From positions 850 through 64,849 of the forward strand of contig CAKSVM010000002.1 of the NCBI GenBank assembly GCA_934503195.1: DNA of 64,000 bases, given 5' to 3'. This DNA is from an uncultured Eubacteriales bacterium. GTDB taxonomy: Bacteria; Bacillota; Clostridia; Oscillospirales; CAG-272. The position numbers and the translations under genes were made by a program. Shown in pieces: positions 19,213 to 49,470 of the stretch (position 1 is its first letter; each line of letters begins with the position of its first letter). The notes under the pieces were generated by a model, which worked only from the letters and a program-made list of their open reading frames with translations, ran no database searches and was not told where the DNA came from.

Positions 19213-19288
19213 AGGTTGTTTTCACGCAAAAAAGCCCATAAATCCAAGCCTTTTCCGCGTGAAAACTCCATTTATTCAGCTTATTCCT
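19213..19288 (+). repeat. Short intergenic repeat (about 76 nt), copy 1, in the fabF-fabZ spacer
   Basis: AGGTTGTtTTCACG..AAAAAGCCCATAAATCCAAGCCTTTT..CGCGTGAAAACTCCATTTATTCAGCTTATtCCT is near-identical to 38768-38843. Contains an imperfect hairpin (TTCACG.../...CGTGAA). Confidence 0.8.
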
Positions 19289-22914: not shown

Positions 22915-24009
22915 TCATTCGGTGAAGCGGACGTTTATATCGCCGCCCGAGGTCTTCGCGGTGAGCTTATACTGCGCGCGGGGATTTTCGGACGACTTCG
23001 GATAAGCGGTGCGGTCGGTTTCGGTTTCGATCTGGAAAAGCGATTCGGTGCCGAGAATCGAGCCGTCGATATCGCCGTTTGAGGTTTCGAAGTTGAATTT
23101 TTCGCCGAAGAGCCGCGAGAAGTCGAGCGACGCGTTCGAGGTGGCCGCCGAGAGACGCTTTACTGTGAGGTCTTCGAAGTTCAGGCGGCCGTTGCTGGTC
23201 TTGGCGTTTATCTCGGTCGCGGAGAGGCGCGAGAGGCTGATCCGGCCGTTTGAGGTCGAAGCGTCGATTTCATAGGCCTCGATGTCGGAGAGTGTGATAT
23301 GCGAGCCGGAGGTAGTGACGCTGAGCTTTTCGTCGAGCTTCAGGTTGCCGAGTTTGAGTTCGCCGTCAGAGGTCGAGACGCTGATATCGCCCGAAAAGTC
23401 CTTCGGGAGGTAGACGACCATCGCGAGTCCGGTGTATTTTGTGACGTGCTTTGTGGTGCCGAGCGAGAGCTTGTAGCCGAAGATATTGACTTCCTTTTTT
23501 TCGCCCTGACTCTGTTCGTCGCGGACGAGGAGGGTGTTGCTCGACGTTGAGAAATCGTAGCGGAAGTCGTCGCTTTCAAGTACGTCGACGATAATCGAGT
23601 CGTAATCGCCGGACGCGACGACGACGCTGCAACCCGAGACCGAGATATCGAGCGCGCGGTTGATCGCGGGGTCGAAGGTATAGCGTTTTTCTGAGAATCC
23701 GGACTCGGTGACGTCGATGGCGTCGAAGCTTCCGGGGAGCGCGGAATCGCCCTCTCCGGTATTTCCGGACGGTTCGGAGGTCTGACCGACGTTCTGTCCG
23801 CCTATTGAGATTCCGGACGAGTCGATTTTTATGTAGTCGGCGATATTGACGCCGTCATCGGTGATGTTTATCATATCGACAACCTGCGAGACACTGCCAG
23901 TGATCGCGCCCGCGATCCTCATGAAGATCGAACGCATTCCGAACGAGATCGCGATGACGACGATAAAGATCGTGATGACCGCGCGGCGTGTGAATTTTTT
24001 GAGGTTCAT
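22915..24009 (-). CDS. DUF4097-type beta-strand-repeat (putative adhesin) protein with N-terminal TM
   Basis: N-terminal TM helix AVITIFIVVIAISFG. C-terminal repeated motif: SNGxIxxxxL / TSGGDINV. Confidence 0.7.
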   Translation of the reverse strand: MNLKKFTRRAVITIFIVVIAISFGMRSIFMRIAGAITGSVSQVVDMINITDDGVNIADYIKIDSSGISIGGQNVGQTSEPSGNTGEGDSALPGSFDAIDVTESGFSEKRYTFDPAINRALDISVSGCSVVVASGDYDSIIVDVLESDDFRYDFSTSSNTLLVRDEQSQGEKKEVNIFGYKLSLGTTKHVTKYTGLAMVVYLPKDFSGDISVSTSDGELKLGNLKLDEKLSVTTSGSHITLSDIEAYEIDASTSNGRISLSRLSATEINAKTSNGRLNFEDLTVKRLSAATSNASLDFSRLFGEKFNFETSNGDIDGSILGTESLFQIETETDRTAYPKSSENPRAQYKLTAKTSGGDINVRFTE

Positions 24010-24110
24010 TTGATATCCTTTCGAATTAAATCGATAACGATTGCTATATATAATATTATAGAGCGAATAGCAAAACCAGTAAAGAATATTTCATGAACTT
24101 TCTGTAAAAC

Positions 24111-24386
24111 CAGGGGACGCCCCTGGACGCATACGTCAGGGTTAGTTTGTGCGAATGGGTTAATCTCGGGTCTATCAGTGGGGATTCGGAGTTGCCACCG
24201 CGTGGCAACTCCTTCACCCCGTTCGGGCTTACCGCCCTCACCTGCCGTGCGGGGAGCCCCCGCGGGCGGACGTCAGGGTTTGTGTCTGCGGATGTGTTAA
24301 TCCCGGGTCTATCAGTGGGGATTCGGAGTTGCCACCGCGTGGCAACTCCTTCACCCCGTTCGGGCTTACGCCCTCACCTCGCGTAG
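24111..24386 (+). repeat. Tandem pair (units A 24111-24249, B 24250-24386) of a structured repeat of about 130 nt
   Basis: The units share ...ACGTCAGGGTT...GGTCTATCAGTGGGGATTCGGAGTTGCCACCGCGTGGCAACTCCTTCACCCCGTTCGGGCTTAC.GCCCTCACCT. Each has a 5' hairpin and an 11-bp central hairpin (24188-24212, 24325-24349). Homologous units lie at 41259-41530. Confidence 0.85.
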
Positions 24387-24583
24387 AAGAACGGCAAATG
24401 ACCATAGAGGACGGCCGATGGACGCCGTAGGTGAGGGTCTTGACCCTCCCGCTTCCCATATCGGTTGAGGTGCATCCACAGGAACGACCACAAAACAAAC
24501 GCCCGCCCGGAGCCCCGATCCGGAGCCGCGAGCGAACGCCTAAAAAAATCCAGTGTATAAAGCTTTGGTGGAGGGTGGGGGTC

Positions 24584-24628
24584 AAGGGGGCGGGAACCGC
24601 TTTTCTCGAAAAGTGGTTCCCGCCCCTT
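24584..24628 (-). terminator. Strong GC hairpin downstream of kdgK (putative terminator, no clear U tract)
   Basis: AAGGGG(G)CGGGAACCGC-ttttctcgaaaa-GTGGTTCCCGCCCCTT, about 16 bp with one bulge and one G-T pair. Confidence 0.5.
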
Positions 24629-24634
24629 GTGAAT

Positions 24635-25666
24635 TTATCTGGCTATTCTTCCTGTGCCGTCGCCGCCGATGAGTTTTTCGACTTCTTCGACCGTGACGAG
24701 GTTGAGGTCGCCGTTTATCGTGTGCTTAAGGCAGGACGCGCCGACCGCGAATTCGAGCGCGGCTTTCGCGTCGCCCTTGGTAGCGAGGCCGTAGATGAGT
24801 CCGCCCGCGAAGGAATCGCCGCCGCCTACGCGGTCAACGATATCGGTGATGTCATAGACGCGGCTGCGCGCGAAGATCTTACCGTCGTTGATGCAGGCCG
24901 ACCAGACGTTGCGGTTTGCCGACTTCGACTCGCGGAGGGTGATCGCGACGGTCTTGACGTTCGGATAGTCGGCCATGACCTTATCGCTGATCTCCTTGTA
25001 GCAGTTGAGGTCGATCTCTCCGAGTTCGGGCTTGTTCGAGGAGCTGATTCCGAGAGCCTTCTGGCAGTCCTCCTCGTTGGCGATTACGACGTCGACGTAC
25101 TTGACGAGCTCGGGCATGACTTCGTCGGCGCGCTTGCCGTACTTCCAGAGCTTAGCGCGGTAGTTGAGGTCGCAGGAGGTGGTGACGCCGAGTTCCTTCG
25201 CGGTCTTCAGAGCCTTGATCGCCTCAGCGGCGACGTCAGCCGAGACTGCCGGGGTGATTCCGGTGACGTGGAACCATTTCGCGTCCTTAAGTATCTCGTT
25301 CCAGTCGAAATCGCCTTCCTTGATGTTGGCGAAGGACGAGAACTCGCGGTCGTAGATAACCTTGGACGGACGCTGGCACGCGCCGGTCTCAAGGTAGTAG
25401 ATTCCCATTCTGCCCTTGGTGTGAGCGATCGCCGAGGTGTCGACGTCGTACTTCTTGAGCTCGCGCTCGCAGGCCTTTCCGATGTCGTTGTCGGGAAGCG
25501 CGGTGACGAACTTCGCGTCAAGGCCGTAGTTCGAGAGAGAGACCGCGACATTCGCCTCGCCGCCGCCGAAGGTGGCTTCGAGTGTCGGCTGCTGGAAGAG
25601 CCGATCGTATCCGGGGGACTTCAGGCGGAGCATGATCTCGCCGAAGGTGACAAACTTGTTTTTCAT
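24635..25666 (-). CDS. kdgK: 2-dehydro-3-deoxygluconokinase (PfkB family)
   Basis: MKNKFVTFGEIMLRLKSPGY...FGGGEANVAVSLSNYG and C-terminal DRVGGGDSFAGGL. Typical KdgK. Confidence 0.88.
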   Translation of the reverse strand: MKNKFVTFGEIMLRLKSPGYDRLFQQPTLEATFGGGEANVAVSLSNYGLDAKFVTALPDNDIGKACERELKKYDVDTSAIAHTKGRMGIYYLETGACQRPSKVIYDREFSSFANIKEGDFDWNEILKDAKWFHVTGITPAVSADVAAEAIKALKTAKELGVTTSCDLNYRAKLWKYGKRADEVMPELVKYVDVVIANEEDCQKALGISSSNKPELGEIDLNCYKEISDKVMADYPNVKTVAITLRESKSANRNVWSACINDGKIFARSRVYDITDIVDRVGGGDSFAGGLIYGLATKGDAKAALEFAVGASCLKHTINGDLNLVTVEEVEKLIGGDGTGRIAR

Positions 25667-30566: not shown

Positions 30567-32639
30567 ATGTTTATTGAATCGAAAGGGATAAAAATCGGGT
30601 TCTCGGAGGATTTCCGGAAAATCACGTCGCTTGTCCTCGGAAACGAGGAGAGAATCGGCGAGACTCTGCCGCTCTTCTTTCTGCGGCTCCGCGACGCGAA
30701 GGGAAATCCGGTCATTCTGAACGGAGGCGACGCGAAAATATCCGCGTCCGACGTGGTATCCACGGAAAAACGTCTTACGCTGACATATCACTTTGAGCCG
30801 CTCGACGTGGTTGTAAGTGTTTCCGGCGGAGAGCGGATCGAATGGGGGCTTAAGGTAGAAAATCATTCTCCGCTCGCCGTCGAGTACGTCGACTTCCCGA
30901 ACATAAGCGTCGGGGGGAAGCTGAGGCGAAACGGCGGCGACGGCGCGATTGTCTCGTCCTACAACGAGGGGCTTTATGTCGACGACGCGTCGATGAAGCG
31001 CGACATGGCCGCGCCCGAGTATCCGTCGCAGGGCTGGTACATGATGTTCCCGTATATGCTTTCGTCGCAGTTCATGCTCTATCTCGCCGGGGATCACGGA
31101 CTATATATCGGCGTCCACGACACAAAGCGCGCGCCGAAGGGACTCGACTTTGCCTGCGGCGATAACTCGACGCTCTTCCGGATCCGGGATTTCGTCGGCG
31201 GGGAATACGGCTCGGACATCGCGCTTCCGCCGATCGCCTGGGAATACTTTGACGGCGGCTGGCAGGACGGCGCGGAGATCTACCGCGGATGGATGAACCC
31301 GACTCTCGGGATAAAGCCGCTCGCCGAACTCGACGTCCCCGACTGGTACAAGAGCGATATGCCGCTTGTGATCACATATCCCGTGCGCGGAATTCACGAC
31401 ATGGACGAGATGAAGCCGAACAAGCTCTTCCCCTACGAAAACGTCCTCCCGATCGTCAGAGAGCTTGAGGAGAGGACGAAATCGCGGATCATGGTGCTTC
31501 TCATGCACTGGGAGGGAACCGCTCCGTGGGCTCCGCCGTACGTCTGGCCGCCTTACGGCGGGGCGGAGAGCTTCCTTGAATTCATGAGAAAGCTTCATGA
31601 GCGCGGGGATCTTCTCGGCGTCTATTGCAGCGGACTCGGATTCACCGAGCAGTCGAATCTGATCGACTCTTATAATATGGTAGAAAGCGTTCTCAGAAAT
31701 CAGTTTGACCTCGGATTCTGCCGCGCGCCCGATCAGTCGCTCCCGCACAGCCGGATCTGTACCGGACAGCGCGTCGGATATGATGTCTGCCCGGCTTCGA
31801 GGGTCGGAAAGAAGCTGCTCGACGACGCGCTCGAACCGCTTCTGAAATCGGGCGTTGACTACGTTCAGGCTCTCGATCAGAATCACGGCGGCGGAATGTA
31901 CTTCTGCTACGCGAAGGATCACGGTCATCCCCCGGTCCCGGGCGGATGGATGACGAAGGCTTCGGCTGAGCTTCTGCGCGGCTGGAAGTCGATCTGCCCC
32001 GAAACGCTTCTCGGATGCGAATCGGCGGCGGCCGAGCCTTACATCGACTCGCTGAGGCTTTCCGACAACCGCTATGAGCTCTGCTACCGCCACGGAAAGG
32101 CGATTCCGCTCTATTCGTTCCTCTATCATCCGTATCTGAAGAACTTCATGGGAAATCAGGTGTCCTGTCCGCTCGATTACACGACCGGGCTGCTCGAATA
32201 CCGGCTCGCCTACTCGTTCGCGGCGGGAGATCTTTTGACGCTTGTCCTTAACGACGACGGCGAGGTTATGTTCCACTGGGGAATGCGCGACTTCTCGAAG
32301 ACGCCCGACCGGGACGAGATCATCGGCTTTGTGGCGAAGCTTCAGGAGTTCCACAAGCGTTATCCGGCGGTCTTCCGCGGAGCCGGAATGGTGAAGCCGA
32401 AGGCGTTTGAGTGCGACGAGATTGTGCTCGAAAAGCTCGGCGGCGGCGTTCCGTCCTACGACTCGGCGGTGCTTTCGACGGCCTGGAGAGTCGGTGAGAA
32501 GACGATCCAGATCTTCGTCAACTGGACGAAGGAGGAGAGAATCTGCCGCTTTGAAAACGGCACGGAACTGAGACTTTCGCCGCTTTCGGCCGGGGCGATG
32601 GAATTTGACTGCGAAGTCTGTTTGACGCCGATTGAGTGA
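30567..32639 (+). CDS. Large cytoplasmic protein of unknown family, probable glycoside hydrolase (DUF-type)
   Basis: 690-aa ORF with an AAGGAGG RBS and protein-like composition. It sits between an AraC regulator and an SBP. No catalytic motif that I can name. Confidence 0.5.
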   Translation: MFIESKGIKIGFSEDFRKITSLVLGNEERIGETLPLFFLRLRDAKGNPVILNGGDAKISASDVVSTEKRLTLTYHFEPLDVVVSVSGGERIEWGLKVENHSPLAVEYVDFPNISVGGKLRRNGGDGAIVSSYNEGLYVDDASMKRDMAAPEYPSQGWYMMFPYMLSSQFMLYLAGDHGLYIGVHDTKRAPKGLDFACGDNSTLFRIRDFVGGEYGSDIALPPIAWEYFDGGWQDGAEIYRGWMNPTLGIKPLAELDVPDWYKSDMPLVITYPVRGIHDMDEMKPNKLFPYENVLPIVRELEERTKSRIMVLLMHWEGTAPWAPPYVWPPYGGAESFLEFMRKLHERGDLLGVYCSGLGFTEQSNLIDSYNMVESVLRNQFDLGFCRAPDQSLPHSRICTGQRVGYDVCPASRVGKKLLDDALEPLLKSGVDYVQALDQNHGGGMYFCYAKDHGHPPVPGGWMTKASAELLRGWKSICPETLLGCESAAAEPYIDSLRLSDNRYELCYRHGKAIPLYSFLYHPYLKNFMGNQVSCPLDYTTGLLEYRLAYSFAAGDLLTLVLNDDGEVMFHWGMRDFSKTPDRDEIIGFVAKLQEFHKRYPAVFRGAGMVKPKAFECDEIVLEKLGGGVPSYDSAVLSTAWRVGEKTIQIFVNWTKEERICRFENGTELRLSPLSAGAMEFDCEVCLTPIE

Positions 32640-32655
32640 AAGGAAGCAATATATA

Positions 32656-34110
32656 ATGAAGAAATTTACGATTCTGCCCCTCGCGCTCGCGCTTATCCTG
32701 ACCTCCTGCGGGGCGGAGAAGCTTCCGGATGAGACGACGGCGGGGGATACGACGACCGCCGCCGGTGAGTCAGGCGAGACGACCGGACTTTCGGCCGAGC
32801 TTCCAGACGCCGACTACGGCGGGTATGAGTTCAGGGTTCTGATCCGCCCGAAGACGACGGTTGACTGGGCGGGGGATATGTTCCGCGAGTCGAGCGGCGA
32901 CGTGCTTGACGACGCGGTTTACAACCGGAATCAGGCGGTCGAGGAAAAACTCGGCGTGAAGCTTGTCAAGGTCGAGTCGTCCGACGCTAACTACGCGGGC
33001 GACGGAAAGAACTCTATCTTAGCCGGGGACGACGCGTATGATCTCATAATGCCGCACACGAGAACGGCGTTCGGCTACGCGGAGGAAGGACTCTGCCTCG
33101 ACTTCAACGATCTGCGCTACGTCGACCTCGACAAGCCGTGGTGGAACGCCGACGCGCGCGAGAGCTTCACGATCAACGATAAGCTCTATGTGATGACCGG
33201 GGACATCAGCTTCCAGCTTCTCGGGCAGTCGATGTGCCTCTTCTTCAACAAGACTCTGCTTGACAGGTACAACGAGGAATACCCATATCAGACTGTCGCC
33301 GACATGAAGTGGACGCTTGAGGAGTTCGGACGGCTCGTCGCGCTCTGCTCGGACGATCTCAACGGCGACGGCAGGATGACCGACACCGACGATCTCTTCG
33401 GTTACTCGACGCATCAGTGGCGCGGGCCGATGCAGGCTCTCGTGATCTGCGGCGGGCGGGTCGCTTCGAAGGACAAGAATGGCGATATCGTCCTCTCGCT
33501 GAACACCGAGCGGGTTCAGAAGTGCTTTGAGGACTTCTTCAAGATCGCCGACTCGGCGAACGTCAACCTCCAGATGAACAAGGAGAACGCCGCGAAGGGC
33601 GATTACTTCATCGACGTCTTCCGCGACGGACGGGCTTTGTTCCTCTCGGCGAATCTCAACAATGCGTCGTATATGCGGAGCATGAAGGACGATTTCGGAA
33701 TAATTCCGTCGCCGATGTACGACGAGTCGGACGGGAGATATTACACGAACGTCGACGGCGGTCTGCATCTGCTGATCGTGCCGAAGACGGCTTCGGATCC
33801 GGATCGGACGTCGGCGGTGCTTGAGGCTCTTTCGGCCGAGGGGTACAGCCGCGTCATGCCGGCCTACTACGAGGTCGCGCTGACGACGAAATATGTCCGC
33901 GACGAGCTTTCGGTCGCGATGATCGATCTTATACGCGACGCGCGGGTACTCGATCTCGGCTACAACAACAACGGACTCACCGGGCGGTTTGCGTCGTTCG
34001 GGTATTTCCTCGCGGACGATCCGAACCACGCCTTCGCCTCGTTCTACGCGAAATACGAGTCAGAGGTGAAGACCGGAATGGAGAAGGATCTCGAAAGCTA
34101 CGGAAAATAA
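32656..34110 (+). CDS. ABC-transporter extracellular solute-binding lipoprotein (large, sugar-type)
   Basis: MKKFTILPLALALILTSCG lipobox, T/G/E-rich linker, about 484 aa. Paralogous to 39786-41258 and to the pseudogene 34155-35124. Confidence 0.85.
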   Translation: MKKFTILPLALALILTSCGAEKLPDETTAGDTTTAAGESGETTGLSAELPDADYGGYEFRVLIRPKTTVDWAGDMFRESSGDVLDDAVYNRNQAVEEKLGVKLVKVESSDANYAGDGKNSILAGDDAYDLIMPHTRTAFGYAEEGLCLDFNDLRYVDLDKPWWNADARESFTINDKLYVMTGDISFQLLGQSMCLFFNKTLLDRYNEEYPYQTVADMKWTLEEFGRLVALCSDDLNGDGRMTDTDDLFGYSTHQWRGPMQALVICGGRVASKDKNGDIVLSLNTERVQKCFEDFFKIADSANVNLQMNKENAAKGDYFIDVFRDGRALFLSANLNNASYMRSMKDDFGIIPSPMYDESDGRYYTNVDGGLHLLIVPKTASDPDRTSAVLEALSAEGYSRVMPAYYEVALTTKYVRDELSVAMIDLIRDARVLDLGYNNNGLTGRFASFGYFLADDPNHAFASFYAKYESEVKTGMEKDLESYGK

Positions 34111-34142: not shown

Positions 34143-34154
34143 ATTTCGCGTGTT

Positions 34155-35124
34155 TCAGCGGTCGCGGTAGGCGCTGTTTATCTCGTCGAGCTTGGCGTTC
34201 GCGGTGTTTTCGTACTTCGCGTAGAAGGTCGGAAGGACGTTATAGTGTCCGTCGGCGCAGAGGGCTTCGATGATGATCGACGTGCGCTCGGGATCGGAGG
34301 CCGTCTTGGGGACGCCGATCATGTTGCATCCGGCGTCGACGTTCGAGTAATATCTGTCGTACGACTCGTCGAACTTCGGCCACGGGATGATTCCGAAGTC
34401 GGCCTTCATGTCGCGCAGATTTTCAGAAGCTTGATGTTCTGGTCGATGAAGAGCGCGCGGTTTTCGACGAAGGCCTTGGTGTTGACGTCGTTGTTTCCGT
34501 CGATGGCGATATTGACGCTTCCGCTGTCGGCGAGGGCGAAGAACTTATCGAAGATCTCGACCGTCCGCTCGGTGTTAAGTGAGAGGACAAGCTCGTCGTT
34601 TTCGTCCTTGGTGCAGATCCGCTGACCGCCCGAGTAGAGCACCTGAATCGGTCCGACCCACTGCGAGGTGACGTGGCCGAGGCGATCCGACTCAACGCTC
34701 AGGCTTCCGTTGCCGTCAAGATCCTCCGAGCCGTCGCGGACGTACTTCGAGAAGAGGTCGAACGTCCACTTTCCGTCGCGCACCGTGTCGTAGATCCCCT
34801 CGATTTTGAGATCCTCGAAGAGCTTCTTGTTGAAGAGCATCGCGTCGGCCGCGCCGAGATTCTGATAGCTGATGTCCCCGGCGCAGGTGTAGAGCTTATC
34901 CGCGACCGAGAGATTCTCGCGCGCGTCCTGGTTCCACCACGGCTTGTCGAGGTCGATATAGGGCGGCTGTTGCGCTCGTAGATCGCGTCGGTCATGATGT
35001 CTCCGTCGGCGTCCCCGACGTACATATCGGCGATGAAGGTATCGTCGTCGCGGATGTACATGACGAAATCGTAGCCGTTGTAGTTCTTTTCGGGAAGATC
35101 GTCGGAGATTTTTCCGTCGGTCGT
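34155..35124 (-). pseudogene. Decayed paralog of the solute-binding lipoprotein (5' truncated, frameshifted, internal deletions)
   Basis: Fragments in three frames align to the 32656 gene. DDLPEKNYNGYDFVMYIRDD aligns to ELPDADYGGYEFRVLIRPK. YIDLDKPWWNQDARE aligns to YVDLDKPWWNADARE. LSLNTERTVEIFDKFF aligns to LSLNTERVQKCFEDFF. FGIIPWPKFDESYDRYYSNVDAG...PKTASDPERTS aligns to FGIIPSPMYDESDGRYYTNVDGG...PKTASDPDRTS. There is no signal peptide; it starts directly after the AraC stop. Confidence 0.85.
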
Positions 35125-38767: not shown

Positions 38768-38843
38768 AGGTTGTATTCACGACGAAAAAGCCCATAAATC
38801 CAAGCCTTTTTCGCGTGAAAACTCCATTTATTCAGCTTATCCT
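38768..38843 (+). repeat. Short intergenic repeat (about 76 nt), copy 2, upstream of the SIMPL gene
   Basis: Near-identical to 19213-19288, in the same orientation relative to the downstream gene. Confidence 0.8.
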
Positions 38844-39785: not shown

Positions 39786-41258
39786 ATGAAAAAGGCATTA
39801 TCTCTCACCCTCGCGCTCGCTCTTCTCATGACGACGGCCGCGTCCTGCGGACAGTCGGGGAACGGCGGAAATGAAACGACCACCTCGGGCGGATCGACGA
39901 CCACAAACGGCACGACCGAACCCGAGACCACAAAGTCGCTTGTCGATCAGCTCGGCGACATCGACGAGAAGTACAAGGGACGCACCTTCACCTTCCTCGA
40001 CGCGAACGGTTCGCCGTCGATTCACGTCAATATCCCCGGCGACTCGGAGACCGGCGAGGTCATAAACGACGCGCTTTACGAGCGTGACACTTATATGGAG
40101 GATCGCTACGGAATCAAGATCGACTACGTTTCGGTTCCCAAGGCATCCGACGGATGCAATCAGCTCAAGAACTCGGTGCTGGCGGGCGACAACGACTATG
40201 ACTTCGTCATGTCCTGCCTGATGGGCGGCGCGCTCGGAACGATCGCGACCGAGGGAGTTCTCGCGAACCTCATCGATGTTCCGCACCTCTCGCTGACCGA
40301 TACGTGGTGGAGCCACTATATGTACGAAAATCTCCAGATTGACGGCAAGATGTACTATACGACCGGAGATATCACGCCGTCGCTCTATCAGATGCCGGCC
40401 TGCGTCTACGTCAACCGCGACCTCGTTGAAAAGTACGGAATCGACGTCGACTTCTACAAGGAAGTTACCGACGGCACATGGACGATGGACGTCCTCGGCG
40501 AGGCTACGAAGGGTCTTGATCAGGATCTCAACAACGACGGCGTTATGAGCGACGATGACGATTTCTTCGGCTTCGCGCCGCAGATGAACACGCTTATGAC
40601 CGAGTCTCTGCTTGTCGGCGCGGGCGTTCCGTTCTGCACGGTCGACAACACCAAAGACACGGTGACGATCGGATTTGACGATGAGTACACCGCGAACGTA
40701 ATGGAAAAGATCGCCTCGATCCTCCCGAAGGATATCACCTTCACGCCCTACGCGGTCAACACCGGAAAGGTCTTCAGCGAGGACCGCGCGGTTGTCACGA
40801 TGCACTTCGTCGAGAAGGCGATCAACACCTTCAGAAGCATGAAGAGCGATTATTATATTCTTCCGGTGCCGAAGTACTCGGCCGATCAGGACGGCTACCG
40901 TTCGTTCGTGAACGCGTGGATCCACGCCTTTGTGGCAATCCCGTCGAACGCGGATCTTGATTTCGCGGGCTTTGTGACCGAGGCTATGGCGAGATATTCC
41001 TACGAAAACATCCGTCCGAAGGCGTATGACATCACCTATAAGGCAAAGGCGGCGCGCGACGAGGAGTCGGCCGAGATGCTCGACATCATCTTCGACAACG
41101 TTTACCTTGACTTTGAGGCGGTATACGATTTCGGCAACATGATGAACTCGCTCCACTCGGTAGCTGTCGGAGACGCCGGACTGGCGTCGACCGTAGCGTC
41201 GAAGAAGGACTCTGCAAACACCGCGGCGGCAACGTTCGTCAAGTCGTGGCTAGGCTAA
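39786..41258 (+). CDS. ABC-transporter extracellular solute-binding lipoprotein (paralog)
   Basis: MKKALSLTLALALLMTTAASCG lipobox, T/G-rich linker, 490 aa. Shares blocks with the 32656 SBP (e.g. DYDFVM, WW.., LNNDG). Confidence 0.85.
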   Translation: MKKALSLTLALALLMTTAASCGQSGNGGNETTTSGGSTTTNGTTEPETTKSLVDQLGDIDEKYKGRTFTFLDANGSPSIHVNIPGDSETGEVINDALYERDTYMEDRYGIKIDYVSVPKASDGCNQLKNSVLAGDNDYDFVMSCLMGGALGTIATEGVLANLIDVPHLSLTDTWWSHYMYENLQIDGKMYYTTGDITPSLYQMPACVYVNRDLVEKYGIDVDFYKEVTDGTWTMDVLGEATKGLDQDLNNDGVMSDDDDFFGFAPQMNTLMTESLLVGAGVPFCTVDNTKDTVTIGFDDEYTANVMEKIASILPKDITFTPYAVNTGKVFSEDRAVVTMHFVEKAINTFRSMKSDYYILPVPKYSADQDGYRSFVNAWIHAFVAIPSNADLDFAGFVTEAMARYSYENIRPKAYDITYKAKAARDEESAEMLDIIFDNVYLDFEAVYDFGNMMNSLHSVAVGDAGLASTVASKKDSANTAAATFVKSWLG

Positions 41259-41530
41259 GCGGGGAGCCCCCGCTGGCGGACGTCAGGGTTAGTCTGTGCG
41301 GAATCGGTTATCGCGGTTCTGTCAGGAGGGATTCAGGAGTCACCGCTACGCGGTTACTCCTTCACCCGTTCGGGCTTATCGCCCTCACCTAAAGGCGGGG
41401 AGCCCCCGCTGGCAGACGTCAGGGTTAGTCTGTACGGAATCGGTTATCGCGGTTCTGTCAGGAGGGGGTCGGAGTTACCGCTGCGCGGTCACTCCTTCAC
41501 CCCGCTCAGGCTACGCCTTCGCCTGCCGTG
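41259..41530 (+). repeat. Tandem pair (units C 41259-41394, D 41395-41530) of the structured repeat of about 130 nt
   Basis: Starts 1 nt after the SBP stop codon. Same architecture as 24111-24386: 5' hairpin GCGGGG-agc-CCCCGC and central hairpins at 41336-41360 and 41471-41495. Confidence 0.85.
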
Positions 41531-41592
41531 ATACTGCCGGGCGTTAGTTTTCGGCATGACGTCGCGAAAGAAACAGAGACAAATATTTTTGG

Positions 41593-41634
41593 AAAATCCC
41601 GGGGGCGGCTCCGGGATTTTTCACGCACTTTTTT
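41593..41634 (+). terminator. Rho-independent terminator downstream of the SBP gene and the repeat pair
   Basis: AAAATCCCGG-gggcggct-CCGGGATTTT followed by TCACGCACTTTTTT. Confidence 0.75.
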
Positions 41635-41668: not shown

Positions 41669-41697
41669 TTGACAAGGGGCGCGTTTGGTAGTATAAT
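41669..41697 (+). promoter_or_regulatory. Consensus promoter of the MATE gene
   Basis: TTGACA (41669-41674), 17-nt spacer, TATAAT (41692-41697). Confidence 0.7.
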
Positions 41698-41795: not shown

Positions 41796-43199
41796 TTGTT
41801 AAAATTCTCCGCGCCGATTATATTCTCGTATCTCCTTCAGCAGATCTATACGATCAGCGACGCCGCGATCTGCGGGCAGACCCTCAGCGCGGATGAGGTC
41901 GCCGGGGTCAATGACGTATTTCCGCTGATGTTCATCTTCCTTCAGTTCGCGTTCGGCTGTACGGCCGGGTTCTCGGTAATAACGTCGCTGAAGCTCGGCG
42001 AGGGCGACCGGGAAGGCGTCCGCAAATCCTTCGCCGCTCAGCTTGTCTTAGGCGGCGTTGTGACGCTGATTCTGACCGCTCTCGCGATCCTGACTCTCGA
42101 TCCTCTGCTCCGCTTCATCGGGCTTTCCGAGGCGAATTTCGGCGTCTGGAGGGCGGCGTACGACTACTCGCTCGTGATCTTCATCGGAATCTTCGCTCAG
42201 CTTTACTATAATCTCATCTGCTCGGTGCTGCGGAGTCTGGGCGACTCGGTGACGCCGCTTGTCTTCCTCTTCATCTCGACCGCGCTGAATATCGGACTCG
42301 ATCTTCTCTTCATTATGACCTTCGGGTGGGGAGTGATCGGCGCGGCGTCGGCGACCGTGCTGGCGCAGGCTCTGAGCGCGGCGGCCTGCCTTGTATATAC
42401 CTTCGCGAAATATCCCGAGCTGAGGCTTTCGCGCGGGGATTTCGGCTTCGATCTTCCGCTTCATCTGCGGCATTTGCGGCAGGGGATACCGCTCGGCTTG
42501 CAGTTTTCGGTGCTGGCGGTCGGAATCATCGTGATGCAGTCCGCGCTTGTGAGCTTCGACCTCGGGGCGGACGGAATCATGGCGGCGGGGAATCCGGCTC
42601 AGAACGGCTTCGGCGCGGCGAACAAGCTGAACAACTTTCTGATGTGTCCGATGAGCGCGCTCGGGGCGGCGATTGTCAGCTTCAACGCGCAGAATCTCGG
42701 CGCGGGGCGTCAGGATCGGATCCGGCGCGGGACGATAAAGAGTCTTCTCATCGGACTCTGTATGTACGTTGTCCTCGGCGGAATCGGGCTTCTGCTGACC
42801 ACTGGCGGCGCGTATCAGTATATCTTCATGAGCGCGGACAAGATCAGCGTCGAGTCGATAAGGTTCGGGAACATTTATCTTTACGTGGATCTTGCGATGT
42901 ACTTCATGCTGGCGGCACTTTTCGTGCTGAGGTCAGGCGTGCAGGGAGTCGGGCATTCGGAGTTCACGCTTCTCGCGGGATGCGCGGAGCTTACGGCGCG
43001 GATTCTGATATGCAGTCTGCTTCCGGCGGCGGTGAACGGCGGCGCGATCGATTCCTCGGCGTCGACTCTGGCGTATGCCGCGCTCTGCTTCGGCGATCCC
43101 GGCGCGTGGACTCTGGCGGTTCTGTCGCTTCTCTGGCCGACCGGGAAGTATCTGCTTTGCGGGAAAAGGGCGGAGAAGGCCGGAACGGGGGAAAAGTGA
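41796..43199 (+). CDS. MATE family efflux transporter
   Basis: 12-TM profile. N-terminal LLKFSAPIIFSYLLQQIYTISDAAICGQ is the MATE signature. The start is uncertain: a TTG at 41796 with GAGGG 7 nt upstream, while homology-like sequence (VDLVSGGEGKV) continues upstream without a canonical start. Confidence 0.85.
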   Translation: MLKFSAPIIFSYLLQQIYTISDAAICGQTLSADEVAGVNDVFPLMFIFLQFAFGCTAGFSVITSLKLGEGDREGVRKSFAAQLVLGGVVTLILTALAILTLDPLLRFIGLSEANFGVWRAAYDYSLVIFIGIFAQLYYNLICSVLRSLGDSVTPLVFLFISTALNIGLDLLFIMTFGWGVIGAASATVLAQALSAAACLVYTFAKYPELRLSRGDFGFDLPLHLRHLRQGIPLGLQFSVLAVGIIVMQSALVSFDLGADGIMAAGNPAQNGFGAANKLNNFLMCPMSALGAAIVSFNAQNLGAGRQDRIRRGTIKSLLIGLCMYVVLGGIGLLLTTGGAYQYIFMSADKISVESIRFGNIYLYVDLAMYFMLAALFVLRSGVQGVGHSEFTLLAGCAELTARILICSLLPAAVNGGAIDSSASTLAYAALCFGDPGAWTLAVLSLLWPTGKYLLCGKRAEKAGTGEK

Positions 43200-43361: not shown

Positions 43362-44498
43362 TTATTCGGAAAAAGCCGGAATCCGATCTAAAACCCTGAC
43401 CGCGCGTTCCTCTTCGCGAGGGTAAAGATGCGCGTAGGTCTGCCATGTCGTTTCGACGTTTGAGTGACCGAGACGGCGCGCGACTTCCTGAATGTTTATC
43501 CCCTCGTTCGCGAGAAGCGAGGCGTGCGTGTGGCGAAAATCGTGTATTCGGATATGCGGCAGTCCGGCGGCTTTGGAGTAAGTGGTATTCCGGAGTTCGA
43601 TTGAGGCGTCGCGAAGCGCACGAACCCCACCGCATACCCGGAAGTCCTCGGTGAAACGCGAATCTGCCGCCTGAAGCTTTCTCTGCTCGGAGAGGACAGT
43701 CATCAGCGGCGCGGGAATCTGAAGATCGCGGTAGGACGAGCGGTTCTTCGGAGAAGTTTCGACATCCTCGCCTCGGAGCTTCTGAGTCAGACTCCGGCGG
43801 ATGTGCAGGACATTGCCGTCGATGTCCGACCATTTCAGCGCGTTTATCTCGCCCTTGCGTGCGCCCGTGTAGACCGCAAGCGCGAAGAAGGTGTAATAAC
43901 CGTAGTCGGCGATGTCGCCGGACTGTGCGGCGTCATGCGCGGCTGTGAGGTACTTTCCGACCTGCTCGGCGGTGTAGAAGTGCAGACGCTCCCGCGGGAG
44001 ATCAAATTCGGAGTTCCGGAAGTTGCCGAGAGTCTTAAGCGGGTTTTTCACGATGTAGCCCATCCGTTCGGCGAAGCTCAGCATGGCGGAGAACTGCGTG
44101 AAGTAGTTCTGACAGGTCTTGCAGGAATATCCGCGGGCGGCGATCGAGTTCTTCCATTTCTGCGCCTGCGGGAGATCGAAGTCAGCGAGCTTCACGCCGC
44201 CGACCTCGGGCAGAATGACGTTCTCGAACATCTGGCGTTTCTTGTCGAGAGTCGTCCCGCGGAACTCGGAGCGGACAGAGTCAATATACTCATCGTAGAG
44301 CGACGAGAGGGTCAGCTTCTTTTCGACCGGAGACTTTTTCAGCTCCTCGGAGAGCCTGCGTTCGAGGTCCTTCGCCTCGGTCGCGCCGTAAGCGACGCGC
44401 GTCAGCTGGCGCGGCTTGCCGGACTGGTCGACGTAGTTGATCCGGACGCGGTACTGCTGTTTGCCGTCCTTTTTCTGGTCGGTTTTGTAGATCGGCAT
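43362..44498 (-). CDS. Tyrosine-type site-specific integrase
   Basis: MPIYKTDQKK... SAM-like N-terminal domain. The C-terminal catalytic region has ARKGE, HDFRHTHASLL, LGHSNVETTWQTYAHLY (R..HxxR..Y). The ATG at 44498 with an AAGGAG RBS is preferred to the TTG at 44519. Confidence 0.92.
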   Translation of the reverse strand: MPIYKTDQKKDGKQQYRVRINYVDQSGKPRQLTRVAYGATEAKDLERRLSEELKKSPVEKKLTLSSLYDEYIDSVRSEFRGTTLDKKRQMFENVILPEVGGVKLADFDLPQAQKWKNSIAARGYSCKTCQNYFTQFSAMLSFAERMGYIVKNPLKTLGNFRNSEFDLPRERLHFYTAEQVGKYLTAAHDAAQSGDIADYGYYTFFALAVYTGARKGEINALKWSDIDGNVLHIRRSLTQKLRGEDVETSPKNRSSYRDLQIPAPLMTVLSEQRKLQAADSRFTEDFRVCGGVRALRDASIELRNTTYSKAAGLPHIRIHDFRHTHASLLANEGINIQEVARRLGHSNVETTWQTYAHLYPREEERAVRVLDRIPAFSE

Positions 44499-44613
44499 TT
44501 TGTGGAACTCCTTTCGCAAAGTAAAAGTCCGTGAATTCTGCTTATCCCGGATAATGGGCGCGTACTCTCACGGACTGGCTGATATTTTTCGCGGACGTCT
44601 CCGCTATGGGTAT

Positions 44614-48858: not shown

Positions 48859-49470
48859 ATGGAAAACGAAAACAAGATTCAGGTCTTCGAGAAAGAAGAA
48901 TTCGGCAAAGTCCGCACGCTCATGCGTGACGGCGAGCCGTGGGCAGTCGGCAAGGATGTAGCCGAAGCCCTCGGTTACAAGAACCCGCAGGAAGCGGTCA
49001 GAATGCACGTAGACCCCGAAGACAAAGGGGTGAGCAAAACTCTCACCCCTCGCGGAGAGCAGGACGTAACCCTCATCAACGAATCCGGCTTATACTCCCT
49101 CATCCTCTCATCAAAGCTCCCGAAGGCGAAGGAGTTCAAACGCTGGATAACCTCCGAGGTCCTGCCCGCGCTCCGCAAGACCGGACACTACGGCACGGCG
49201 AAAGCTCCCGACGCCGCCGGAACGGTCGCGCTGATCGAATCGCTCCGGAAGATCATGGAGTCACAGCGCAGTCACCCGGTCGAAATCGCCGAGATGGCGA
49301 AGTCGCTCTGCGAACAGGCAGGAATCGCGCTTCCCGAGAGCTTCATCTGCAACCGCTACTTCCCGACCGCCCCGCTCGGTCAGAGCAAACAGGACAAGCT
49401 CGACTACATCTTCGATTTCACGCACATGGATCGCTTCCAGTTCGAGGCGAAGTACAAGACAAAGGAGTGA
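48859..49470 (+). CDS. Bro-N domain antirepressor-like protein
   Basis: IQVFEKEEFGKVRTLMRDGEPWAVGKDVAEALGY...LINESGLYSLILSSKLPKAKEFKRWITSEVLP matches Bro-N. Confidence 0.8.
   Translation: MENENKIQVFEKEEFGKVRTLMRDGEPWAVGKDVAEALGYKNPQEAVRMHVDPEDKGVSKTLTPRGEQDVTLINESGLYSLILSSKLPKAKEFKRWITSEVLPALRKTGHYGTAKAPDAAGTVALIESLRKIMESQRSHPVEIAEMAKSLCEQAGIALPESFICNRYFPTAPLGQSKQDKLDYIFDFTHMDRFQFEAKYKTKE

Follow-up and report, generated by a model that had tools for sequence, protein, structure and literature searches.

Small intergenic units with conserved hairpin stems and strain-variable copy number in an uncultured Oscillospirales bacterium

The intergenic DNA of an uncultured Eubacteriales bacterium (Clostridia; Oscillospirales) carries a set of small non-coding units that vary between strains while their hairpin stems are conserved. 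We analysed a 64,000-nt stretch of its genome, here called the window (contig CAKSVM010000002.1 of assembly GCA_934503195.1, positions 850 to 64,849), in which four homologous units of 136-140 nt form two head-to-tail pairs: A and B at locus 1, C and D at locus 2. The reading we favour, to which we give about an even chance of being right, is that the units are a lineage-specific non-coding intergenic repeat of the general kind represented by REP/BIME, BOX, ERIC, MIRU and bcr1, with stems under constraint. The considerations behind it are the restriction to one lineage, the position 3' of open reading frames (ORFs) between same-strand genes, the variable copy number, the existence of filled and empty sites, the presence of decayed copies, and hairpins that covary. 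The element is thus an addition to this general kind, belonging to no named family, rather than a recognisable new RNA gene.

A first-pass annotation of this DNA had proposed a tandem pair, A/B, with a second pair 17 kb away, and alignment, blastn and profile searches all establish four homologous units. Tandem Repeats Finder reports a repeat at 24133-24379 (period 137, 1.8 copies, 93% matches), and a repeat search of the window returns one four-copy family with starts at 24114, 24251, 41261 and 41397; the limits in Table 1 were refined by alignment. Pairwise identity is 85% for A-B and for C-D, and 72-78% between loci. With A as query against the window, blastn reaches C at E=4e-24 and D at E=5e-23, and a profile made only from A, B and the related-strain copy E recovers C at E=3e-26 and D at E=2.5e-23; judged by these scores, the homology of units across the two loci, which are otherwise unrelated, is far beyond chance. 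The covariance model that the annotation had suggested building matches, with its filters off, only the four known units in the window. The units begin with GCGGGGAGCCCCCGC... and end with ...CACCTGCCGTG, which in C is replaced by CACCTAAAG, and every copy has the two blocks ACGTCAG and TCAG-N-GGGG unchanged. A coding repeat was considered and rejected, since neither the unit lengths nor the indels between units (1-3 nt) are multiples of 3 and the concatenated open six-frame translation of the units matches none of 5.8 billion predicted proteins; the earlier remark that no frame is protein-like therefore holds.

Each unit, about 136 nt long, contains three GC-rich stem-loops that are independent of one another. 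At the 5' edge stands P0, of 6-7 bp; the centre is taken by P4, of 11 bp and closed by a 4-bp G:C clamp; P5, of 4 bp, lies near the 3' edge. The ~45 nt that separate P0 from P4 are more variable. Pairing and covariation were counted on an alignment of eight copies, the four of the window and four from related strains. P0 is paired in 100% of cells and has three covarying pairs, P4 is paired in 95% with two, and P5 in 100% with one, whilst the clamp, paired in 92% of cells, is invariant. Taken together the three hairpins are 95-100% paired with six covarying pairs; when the 3' partners are shifted by 1-3 columns as a control, pairing drops to 44-51% and covariation is almost gone. P0 exists in four versions (GCGGGG/CCCCGC, CCAGGGG/CCCCTGG, GCGGCG/CGCCGC and GCAGGGT/ACCCTGC). 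The double substitutions from which the first-pass annotation had argued are real, both in P0, where CCAGGGG-ACG-CCCCTGG in A faces GCGGGG-AGC-CCCCGC in B, C and D, and in P4, where pair 7 goes from G:C to A:U and pair 10 from A:U to G:C. A mismatch at P4 pair 6 persists in C, D and F (F being another copy from a related strain), and the sole wobble intermediate in P4, in copy E, is a G-U pair on the minus strand.

Beyond these three local hairpins the alignment supports no helix, and a helix closing the unit is unsupported: the putative closing helix P1 (ACGUCAGG / CCUGCCGU, 8 bp) is paired in 82% of cells and has no covarying pair. Between P0 and P4 no helix is consistent across copies. Fold prediction gives C and D a 9-bp stem there that includes three G-U pairs, on the plus strand only, and A, B and E do not keep it; a conserved helix in the 40-66 region was rejected because the registers differ between an A/B/E type and a C/D/F type. 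Measured against shuffled sequences, plus-strand folds of the units have z-scores from -1.4 to -3.5 and minus-strand folds from -1.9 to -3.3, so that the predicted folding energies give no choice of strand. A long-range pairing had also been proposed, between CCCTCACCT (24371-24379) near the end of unit B and AGGTGAGGG (24429-24437). The 9-nt complement exists, but 44 of 2000 shuffles reach an equal length and it is not conserved (the closest relative reads AGGGGAGGG at the 24429-24437 site), and we rejected it as marginal. The AGGTGAGGG site, which overlaps a local hairpin, may be a short inverted relic of the unit 3' end, or chance.

Are these stems maintained, or merely inherited? We compared the copies that different strains carry at a given locus, setting changes at stem positions against changes elsewhere in the unit by Fisher test. 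The three comparisons have lineages in common and draw on few strains: stems changed at 1 of 50 positions and the rest at 12 of 71 between B and E (p 0.014), at 0 of 41 and 11 of 63 between B and G, the latter a third related-strain copy (p 0.003), and at 1 of 41 and 13 of 63 between E and G (p 0.008). In the adjacent gene, four-fold degenerate sites diverge by 8-11%, and the units as a whole by 12-17%, that is, not below the four-fold sites. The stem change rate is lower than the four-fold-site rate, which means that the stems are more conserved than neutral sequence; the remaining positions of the unit vary no less than neutral ones. These sequence comparisons support the view that the hairpin stems are kept by selection, beyond drift. 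The first-pass annotation had taken the pattern to fit selection on a folded RNA or single-stranded DNA; of this, the maintenance of the hairpins stands (six covarying pairs, Fisher p 0.003-0.014), and there is no sign of a discrete folded RNA of ~130 nt. Whichever molecule is under constraint, RNA or single-stranded DNA alike, the conservation of stems at one and the same locus argues for function.

It is here that a purely mutational origin of the hairpins has to be considered. Template switching during replication yields clustered compensatory changes without selection (PMC8794818), and within inverted repeats it could make and repair palindromes, in which case the units would be neutral junk and the 'compensatory' changes single events. 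Copy E has just such a cluster, four adjacent bases having changed together from TTCA to GAAT so that an internal loop becomes a perfect 19-bp palindrome. The four P0 variants differ by symmetric changes, and the overall divergence of the units, no lower than that of four-fold sites, would suit neutral sequence. What this mechanism explains, however, is paired changes, and not the 5-10 times fewer changes in stems than in the rest of the unit and at four-fold sites across three strains; nor have the pair 6 mismatches of P4 in C, D and F been 'repaired'. We regard it as very unlikely as an account of the whole pattern.

Close relatives, located through the flanking proteins of the units, show how unstable the element is. 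The strain L116, with a DUF4097 protein 95% identical to that of the window and four-fold sites 89% identical, has one unit (E) at precisely the place of A and B, and the sequence that flanks it is the same on either side. L139, from a Hadza gut sample, has two: a gene-proximal unit (G) that lacks 27 nt between two TCACC repeats, and a second (H) cut by the contig end. In another strain, L140, one D-like unit (F) follows a 34-nt remnant consisting of the hairpin GCAGGGT-GCG-ACCCTGC and then ACTCGGACGTCAGG. The site is empty in L117, whose solute-binding protein is 81% identical: the stop codon, 16 nt and the terminator are all that is there. Copy number thus differs: the window has two units per locus and L139 also has two, L116 has a single one, and L140 has one together with a remnant. 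Further away, the locus is rearranged and holds no unit where DUF4097 is 63-67% identical (L119-L122), and species in the 90%-identity PfkB cluster (L129-L138) have no unit either. Contigs of other assemblies of the organism (L105, L106) end inside units, as is expected of a repeat. Both copy number and integrity therefore vary among near-identical strains, an instability typical of small intergenic repeats. Beside the same kinase gene there is also an insertion polymorphism that has nothing to do with the units: in a related species (L129, L132, L135 and L137; L129:3533-4414) the gap after PfkB measures 116 nt in one form and 883 nt in the other, which contains an AT-rich insert of ~770 nt with a small ORF.

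Outside these strains we found no further member of the family. A two-gap exact pattern run over one genome each of 185,579 species gave 102 stretches, none of them relatives by nhmmer or cmsearch; a tighter pattern gave nine matches in JGI metagenomes, all chance, and three patterns gave none in IMG/VR. The pattern scans demanded exact blocks that later proved variable (they are absent in copy E), and diverged relatives may consequently have been missed. Searches by blastn of plasmid and phage collections gave no match, and sequence beyond the window, reached via the proteins at its ends, holds no further copy, its right side being prophage. On this evidence the distribution is very narrow, with copies found only in close relatives whose flanking proteins are at least 90-95% identical. 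The first-pass annotation had recognised no known Rfam family, and indeed the Rfam 15 covariance models find nothing in either unit region at gathering score, nor at E<10 beyond palindrome noise. The lack of any Rfam 15 match led us to reject an identity with twister, hammerhead, HDV-like, hatchet or pistol ribozymes, with riboswitches and with omega-RNA/HEARO. A type III antitoxin array was likewise rejected (the unit is 136 nt, against repeats of ~36 nt placed just before a toxin endoribonuclease gene, and the neighbours are PfkB, DUF4097, SBP_bac_1 and MatE), as were a retron, a diversity-generating retroelement and attC sites, there being no partner gene at either locus.

The genomic setting is shared by the two loci: neighbours on the same strand, with the units 3' of the upstream stop codon and 5' of the downstream promoter-like site. 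At locus 1 the long gene-free gap of the earlier annotation is the 625-bp spacer that separates a PfkB-family kinase gene from a DUF4097 gene; at locus 2 unit C starts immediately after the TAA stop (41256-41258) of a solute-binding-protein gene. All window units point in one direction and so, relative to the upstream gene, run antisense at locus 1 and sense at locus 2. Two divergent promoter-like sites lie between unit A and the DUF4097 gene (24031..24083), one that would serve that gene and one that would read into A and B; in L116 the first hexamer of the latter is TCAATA. An intrinsic-terminator-like hairpin and T-run follow unit D by 60 nt, so that C and D have the stop codon of the solute-binding-protein gene on one side and the terminator of that gene on the other. 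The units have no promoter or terminator that is consistent between the loci, and no terminator follows B. P0 was rejected as a general intrinsic terminator, since only at locus 1 is it followed, on the minus strand, by a T-run. A riboswitch or 5' leader was rejected too, because the promoter-like sites of DUF4097 and MatE stand between the units and those genes, which leaves the units outside the 5' untranslated regions, and the terminator separates D from MatE. The locus 1 spacer has other structured sequence besides A and B. The long GC-rich hairpin just past the PfkB stop codon also shows compensatory changes in L116. At 24507-24531 there is a 13-nt tandem repeat (CCGGAGCCCCGAT, 1.9 copies), and the surrounding 24470-24580 is ~93% conserved in L116, exceeding the units.

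How does the element compare with repeats already described? Similar in size is bcr1 of the Bacillus cereus group (~155 bp), likened here by description: it too is an intergenic repeat of Bacillota, with a distribution that is not conserved between close strains, and with compensatory changes that keep the predicted structure whilst some copies are destabilised (PMC3184786). Unlike the units, however, bcr1 behaves as a MITE, a miniature transposable element with inverted repeats, and has 5-bp flanking direct repeats, whereas the units stand head-to-tail and have neither target duplications nor terminal inverted repeats. Indeed, a classical MITE was rejected on these two features. The only inverted repeat of the unit is an imperfect subterminal 8-mer (ACGTCAGG / CCTGCCGT), 82% paired and without covariation, and there is no target-site duplication in the flanks, which read CTGTAAAA / (A)GAAGAAC at locus 1 and GGCTAA / ATACTGCC at locus 2. 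The behaviour expected of a mobile repeat, filled and empty sites, is nonetheless seen, L117 being empty and L116, L139 and L140 differing in copy number. MIRU/VNTR elements share with the units the direct tandem arrangement at several intergenic sites, the filled and empty sites, the internal GC-rich inverted repeats (PMC3184786) and a copy number that varies between strains; MIRUs, moreover, are co-transcribed with neighbouring genes (PMC3184786). But MIRUs are 40-100 bp long, with short ORFs that overlap the flanking genes and tetranucleotide direct repeats, whereas our units are 136-140 nt, non-coding and without flanking repeats.

The REP/BIME elements, among them the GTAG- and CGTC-tagged REPs and SMAG, likewise consist of GC-rich stem-loops, single or clustered, with no known dedicated transposase (PMC3733652, PMC3184786). 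REPs lie mostly 3' of ORFs between unidirectional or convergent genes, are probably transcribed and probably act in RNA (PMC3733652), and both of our loci have just such a location, between same-strand genes, past the upstream stop and before the downstream promoter. A REP, in contrast, consists of one palindrome, 20-40 bp long and tagged at its end, and most REPs are arranged as inverted dimers, where the units are three-hairpin composites of 136 nt in direct tandem. A tagged REP is defined by a 20-40-bp palindrome in which the tag is directly followed by an 8-9-bp stem with a loop of 4-5 nt; this identity was rejected, considering that the CGTC of ACGTCAGG is followed by AGGGTTAGT..., with no palindrome and no 8-9-bp stem, and that the unit is 136 nt long. 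With the pneumococcal BOX and SPRITE repeats the units have in common the phylum Bacillota, modular or tandem sub-units in variable number and stable predicted RNA structures (PMC3184786); both are transcribed, and SPRITE is biased to the 3' ends of genes (PMC3184786). BOX, however, is assembled from boxA, boxB and boxC modules with tandem boxB of ~45 nt, and the units have neither this modularity nor a sequence relation to it. It is because the element fails the MITE and tagged-REP tests, and fits MIRU only in its tandem, strain-variable behaviour, that we file it under the general kind.

A different origin, as non-autonomous derivatives of a single-stranded DNA transposon (IS200/IS605-like or another HUH-type), would make the hairpins sites for a transposase encoded elsewhere and the tandems the product of adjacent insertion. 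The absence of terminal inverted repeats and target duplications is as in the IS200/IS605-like family, a hairpin stands near either end, with P0 at the 5' edge and P5 at 12-16 nt from the 3' edge, and filled and empty sites both occur. The first unit of each locus is preceded by TAA or AAAA, and the window copies are co-oriented where cumulative GC skew rises throughout, i.e. within one replichore, although this orientation evidence comes from two loci only. An IS200/IS605-derived element (PATE) would have subterminal hairpins at either end, a conserved cleavage or target motif 5' of its left end and a Y1 transposase in the genome; in the units, the end-proximal hairpins P0 and P5 are unlike each other, and the 5' flanks vary, with TAA, AAAA and CCGG before first units and CCGT and GCGT before second ones. 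The 64-kb window encodes no transposase gene of the Y1, RAYT or TnpB type. Dead copies should lose their stems at the neutral rate, whereas same-locus copies keep them. We consider such an origin unlikely, if by no means negligible. Somewhat more doubtful still is the proposal that the units are a functional structured RNA of the plus strand, whether a small RNA or a processed fragment of a 3' untranslated region (3'-UTR), with invariant single-stranded blocks that are possibly catalytic or protein-binding, and with tandems that are gene duplicates. It would account for stems that covary and evolve far slower than neutral sites, for the invariance of ACGTCAG and TCAG-N-GGGG in every copy, and for folding better than shuffles (z -1.4 to -3.5). 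It could also draw on the plus-strand-only helix of C and D with its three G-U pairs, on the plus-strand promoter-like site upstream of A, and on the stop codon and plus-strand terminator that flank C and D. On the other hand, the minus-strand folds are about equal (z -1.9 to -3.3), the one P4 wobble, in E, is G-U on the minus strand, the C/D helix is absent in A, B and E, and the closing helix has no covariation. The promoter match is weak (9/12), with a first hexamer of TCAATA in the relative, no terminator follows B, and Rfam offers no match at E<10. Truncated copies and copy-number shifts in near-identical strains, together with the narrow distribution and the absence of units from the nearest relatives, also sit poorly with an RNA gene.

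The repeat reading has its own difficulties. Its 'interspersed family' is known from eight copies at two loci, in about four strains. There being no terminal inverted repeats, target duplications or transposase in the window, mobility is deduced from the filled and empty sites alone. The junctions of the two pairs differ (GCCGTG in one, AAAG in the other), and no single dimer-forming mechanism is evident. We could speculate, too, that the units are an undescribed, species-restricted functional nucleic acid, an idea that we hold to be improbable. As RNA, this might be a ~136-nt species from a tandem precursor, with three hairpins and invariant ACGUCAG and UCAG-N-GGGG blocks, which may be released from 3'-UTR or antisense transcripts; as DNA, the units may be the ends of a new HUH-type element, a single-stranded DNA mobile element that recognises hairpins and builds head-to-tail arrays.

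If the units are an intergenic repeat of the REP/BIME and bcr1 kind, the following mode of existence seems to us the most likely. Strain comparisons show that slippage or unequal recombination changes the copy number, a site holding one unit or two head-to-tail, and that internal deletions arise between short direct repeats; the hairpin stems are probably preserved by selection. The near-palindromic hairpins, in either orientation, could then act in read-through transcripts of the upstream gene as structures that protect or terminate the 3' end; by analogy with REP, SMAG and SPRITE, this 3'-end role would be the most likely one. Should this be true, the units would represent a new family of small structured intergenic repeats in uncultured gut Clostridia, where such repeats have hardly been described, and a small, clean example of hairpin stems held under constraint while the remaining unit and the copy number shift between strains. 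Being strain-variable, the units are usable as a strain marker, and, being repeats, they are where metagenome assemblies of this organism break. They also carry a caution, namely that an RNA gene is not to be identified from a handful of compensatory changes between paralogues alone. Discrete unit-length RNAs or a cognate transposase, if found, would raise the importance of the units.

Table 1. Positions of the units, their hairpins and the features around the two loci (window coordinates).
Feature	Position	Strand	Details
Unit A	24110..24249	+	140 nt; cmsearch 147.8 bits
Unit A, P0	24110-24126		CCAGGGG-ACG-CCCCTGG
Unit A, P4	24188-24212		11 bp; clamp GGGG 24180-24183 / CCCC 24217-24220
Unit A, P5	24225-24237		
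Unit A, possible closing strands	24133-24140 / 24241-24248		
Unit B	24249..24385	+	137 nt; cmsearch 159 bits
Unit B, P0	24249-24263		GCGGGG-AGC-CCCCGC
Unit B, P4	24325-24349		clamp 24317-24320 / 24354-24357
Unit B, P5	24362-24373		
Unit B, possible closing strands	24270-24277 / 24377-24384		
Unit C	41259..41394	+	136 nt; cmsearch 135 bits
Unit C, P0	41259-41273		
Unit C, P4	41336-41360		C/U mismatch at pair 6
Unit C, P5	41372-41384		
Unit D	41395..41530	+	136 nt; cmsearch 147.2 bits
Unit D, P0	41395-41409		
Unit D, P4	41471-41495		
Unit D, P5	41508-41518		AGGC/GCCT, a compensatory G:C to A:U
Unit D, possible closing strands	41416-41423 / 41522-41529		
AGGTGAGGG site	24429..24448		overlaps local hairpin GAGGGTC-TT-GACCCTC (24433-24448)
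Locus 1 spacer	24010-24634		625 bp; PfkB-family kinase gene to DUF4097 gene
PfkB-family kinase gene	24635-25666	minus	
DUF4097 gene	22915-24009	minus	
DUF4097 promoter-like site	24083 to 24055	minus	TTTACT-17-TATAAT, 10/12; consensus match only
Promoter-like site reading into A and B	24031-24059	+	TCGATA-17-TATTAT, 9/12; consensus match only
GC-rich long hairpin	24582..24630		just past PfkB stop codon (24635); no T-run on the PfkB (minus) strand
SBP_bac_1 (solute-binding-protein) gene	39786-41258	+	
Intrinsic-terminator-like hairpin and T-run	41590..41623	+	60 nt past unit D
MatE promoter-like site	41669-41697	+	TTGACA-17-TATAAT
MatE gene	41796-43199	+	

Several other features of the window came to light. 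To the right of locus 2 a prophage occupies 43342-64000, beginning with a tyrosine integrase gene (43362-44519, minus strand) that adjoins MatE and continuing with genes for a helix-turn-helix repressor-like protein, Bro-N, AAA_24, a DEAD helicase, a PriCT_2 primase, RusA, terminase and portal. Its GC content falls to 47% at 44-48 kb, and other assemblies (L103, L104, L123, L124 and L140) have the same prophage in this position. Inside it, with 35 nt between it and a Bro-N family gene downstream (48859-49470), lies a full-length self-cleaving Twister-P5 ribozyme (RF02684; 48766-48824, plus strand; 55.3 bits against a gathering score of 37.6), unrelated to the units and the only gathering-level match of Rfam 15 in the whole window. 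On the minus strand at 34150-35110, after the second solute-binding-protein gene (32632-34110), a coding-like stretch of ~1 kb with no listed ORF of at least 150 aa may be a frameshifted pseudogene. Two independent assemblies (L126 and L127) end at the same base, ~849 nt left of the window start and upstream of a large GTPase gene; the shared end has no match to the unit model and suggests another repeat or an rRNA or tRNA locus. A second small repeat, finally, occurs at 19229-19284 and 38785-38840 on the plus strand (56 nt at 98% identity, ~75-85 nt with flanks), upstream of plus-strand genes at both sites; it has an inverted repeat, TTTTCACG...CGTGAAAA, around AAGCCCATAAATCCAAGCC, and in a neighbouring species (L129, L130) related sequence separates PfkB from a CTP synthase gene.

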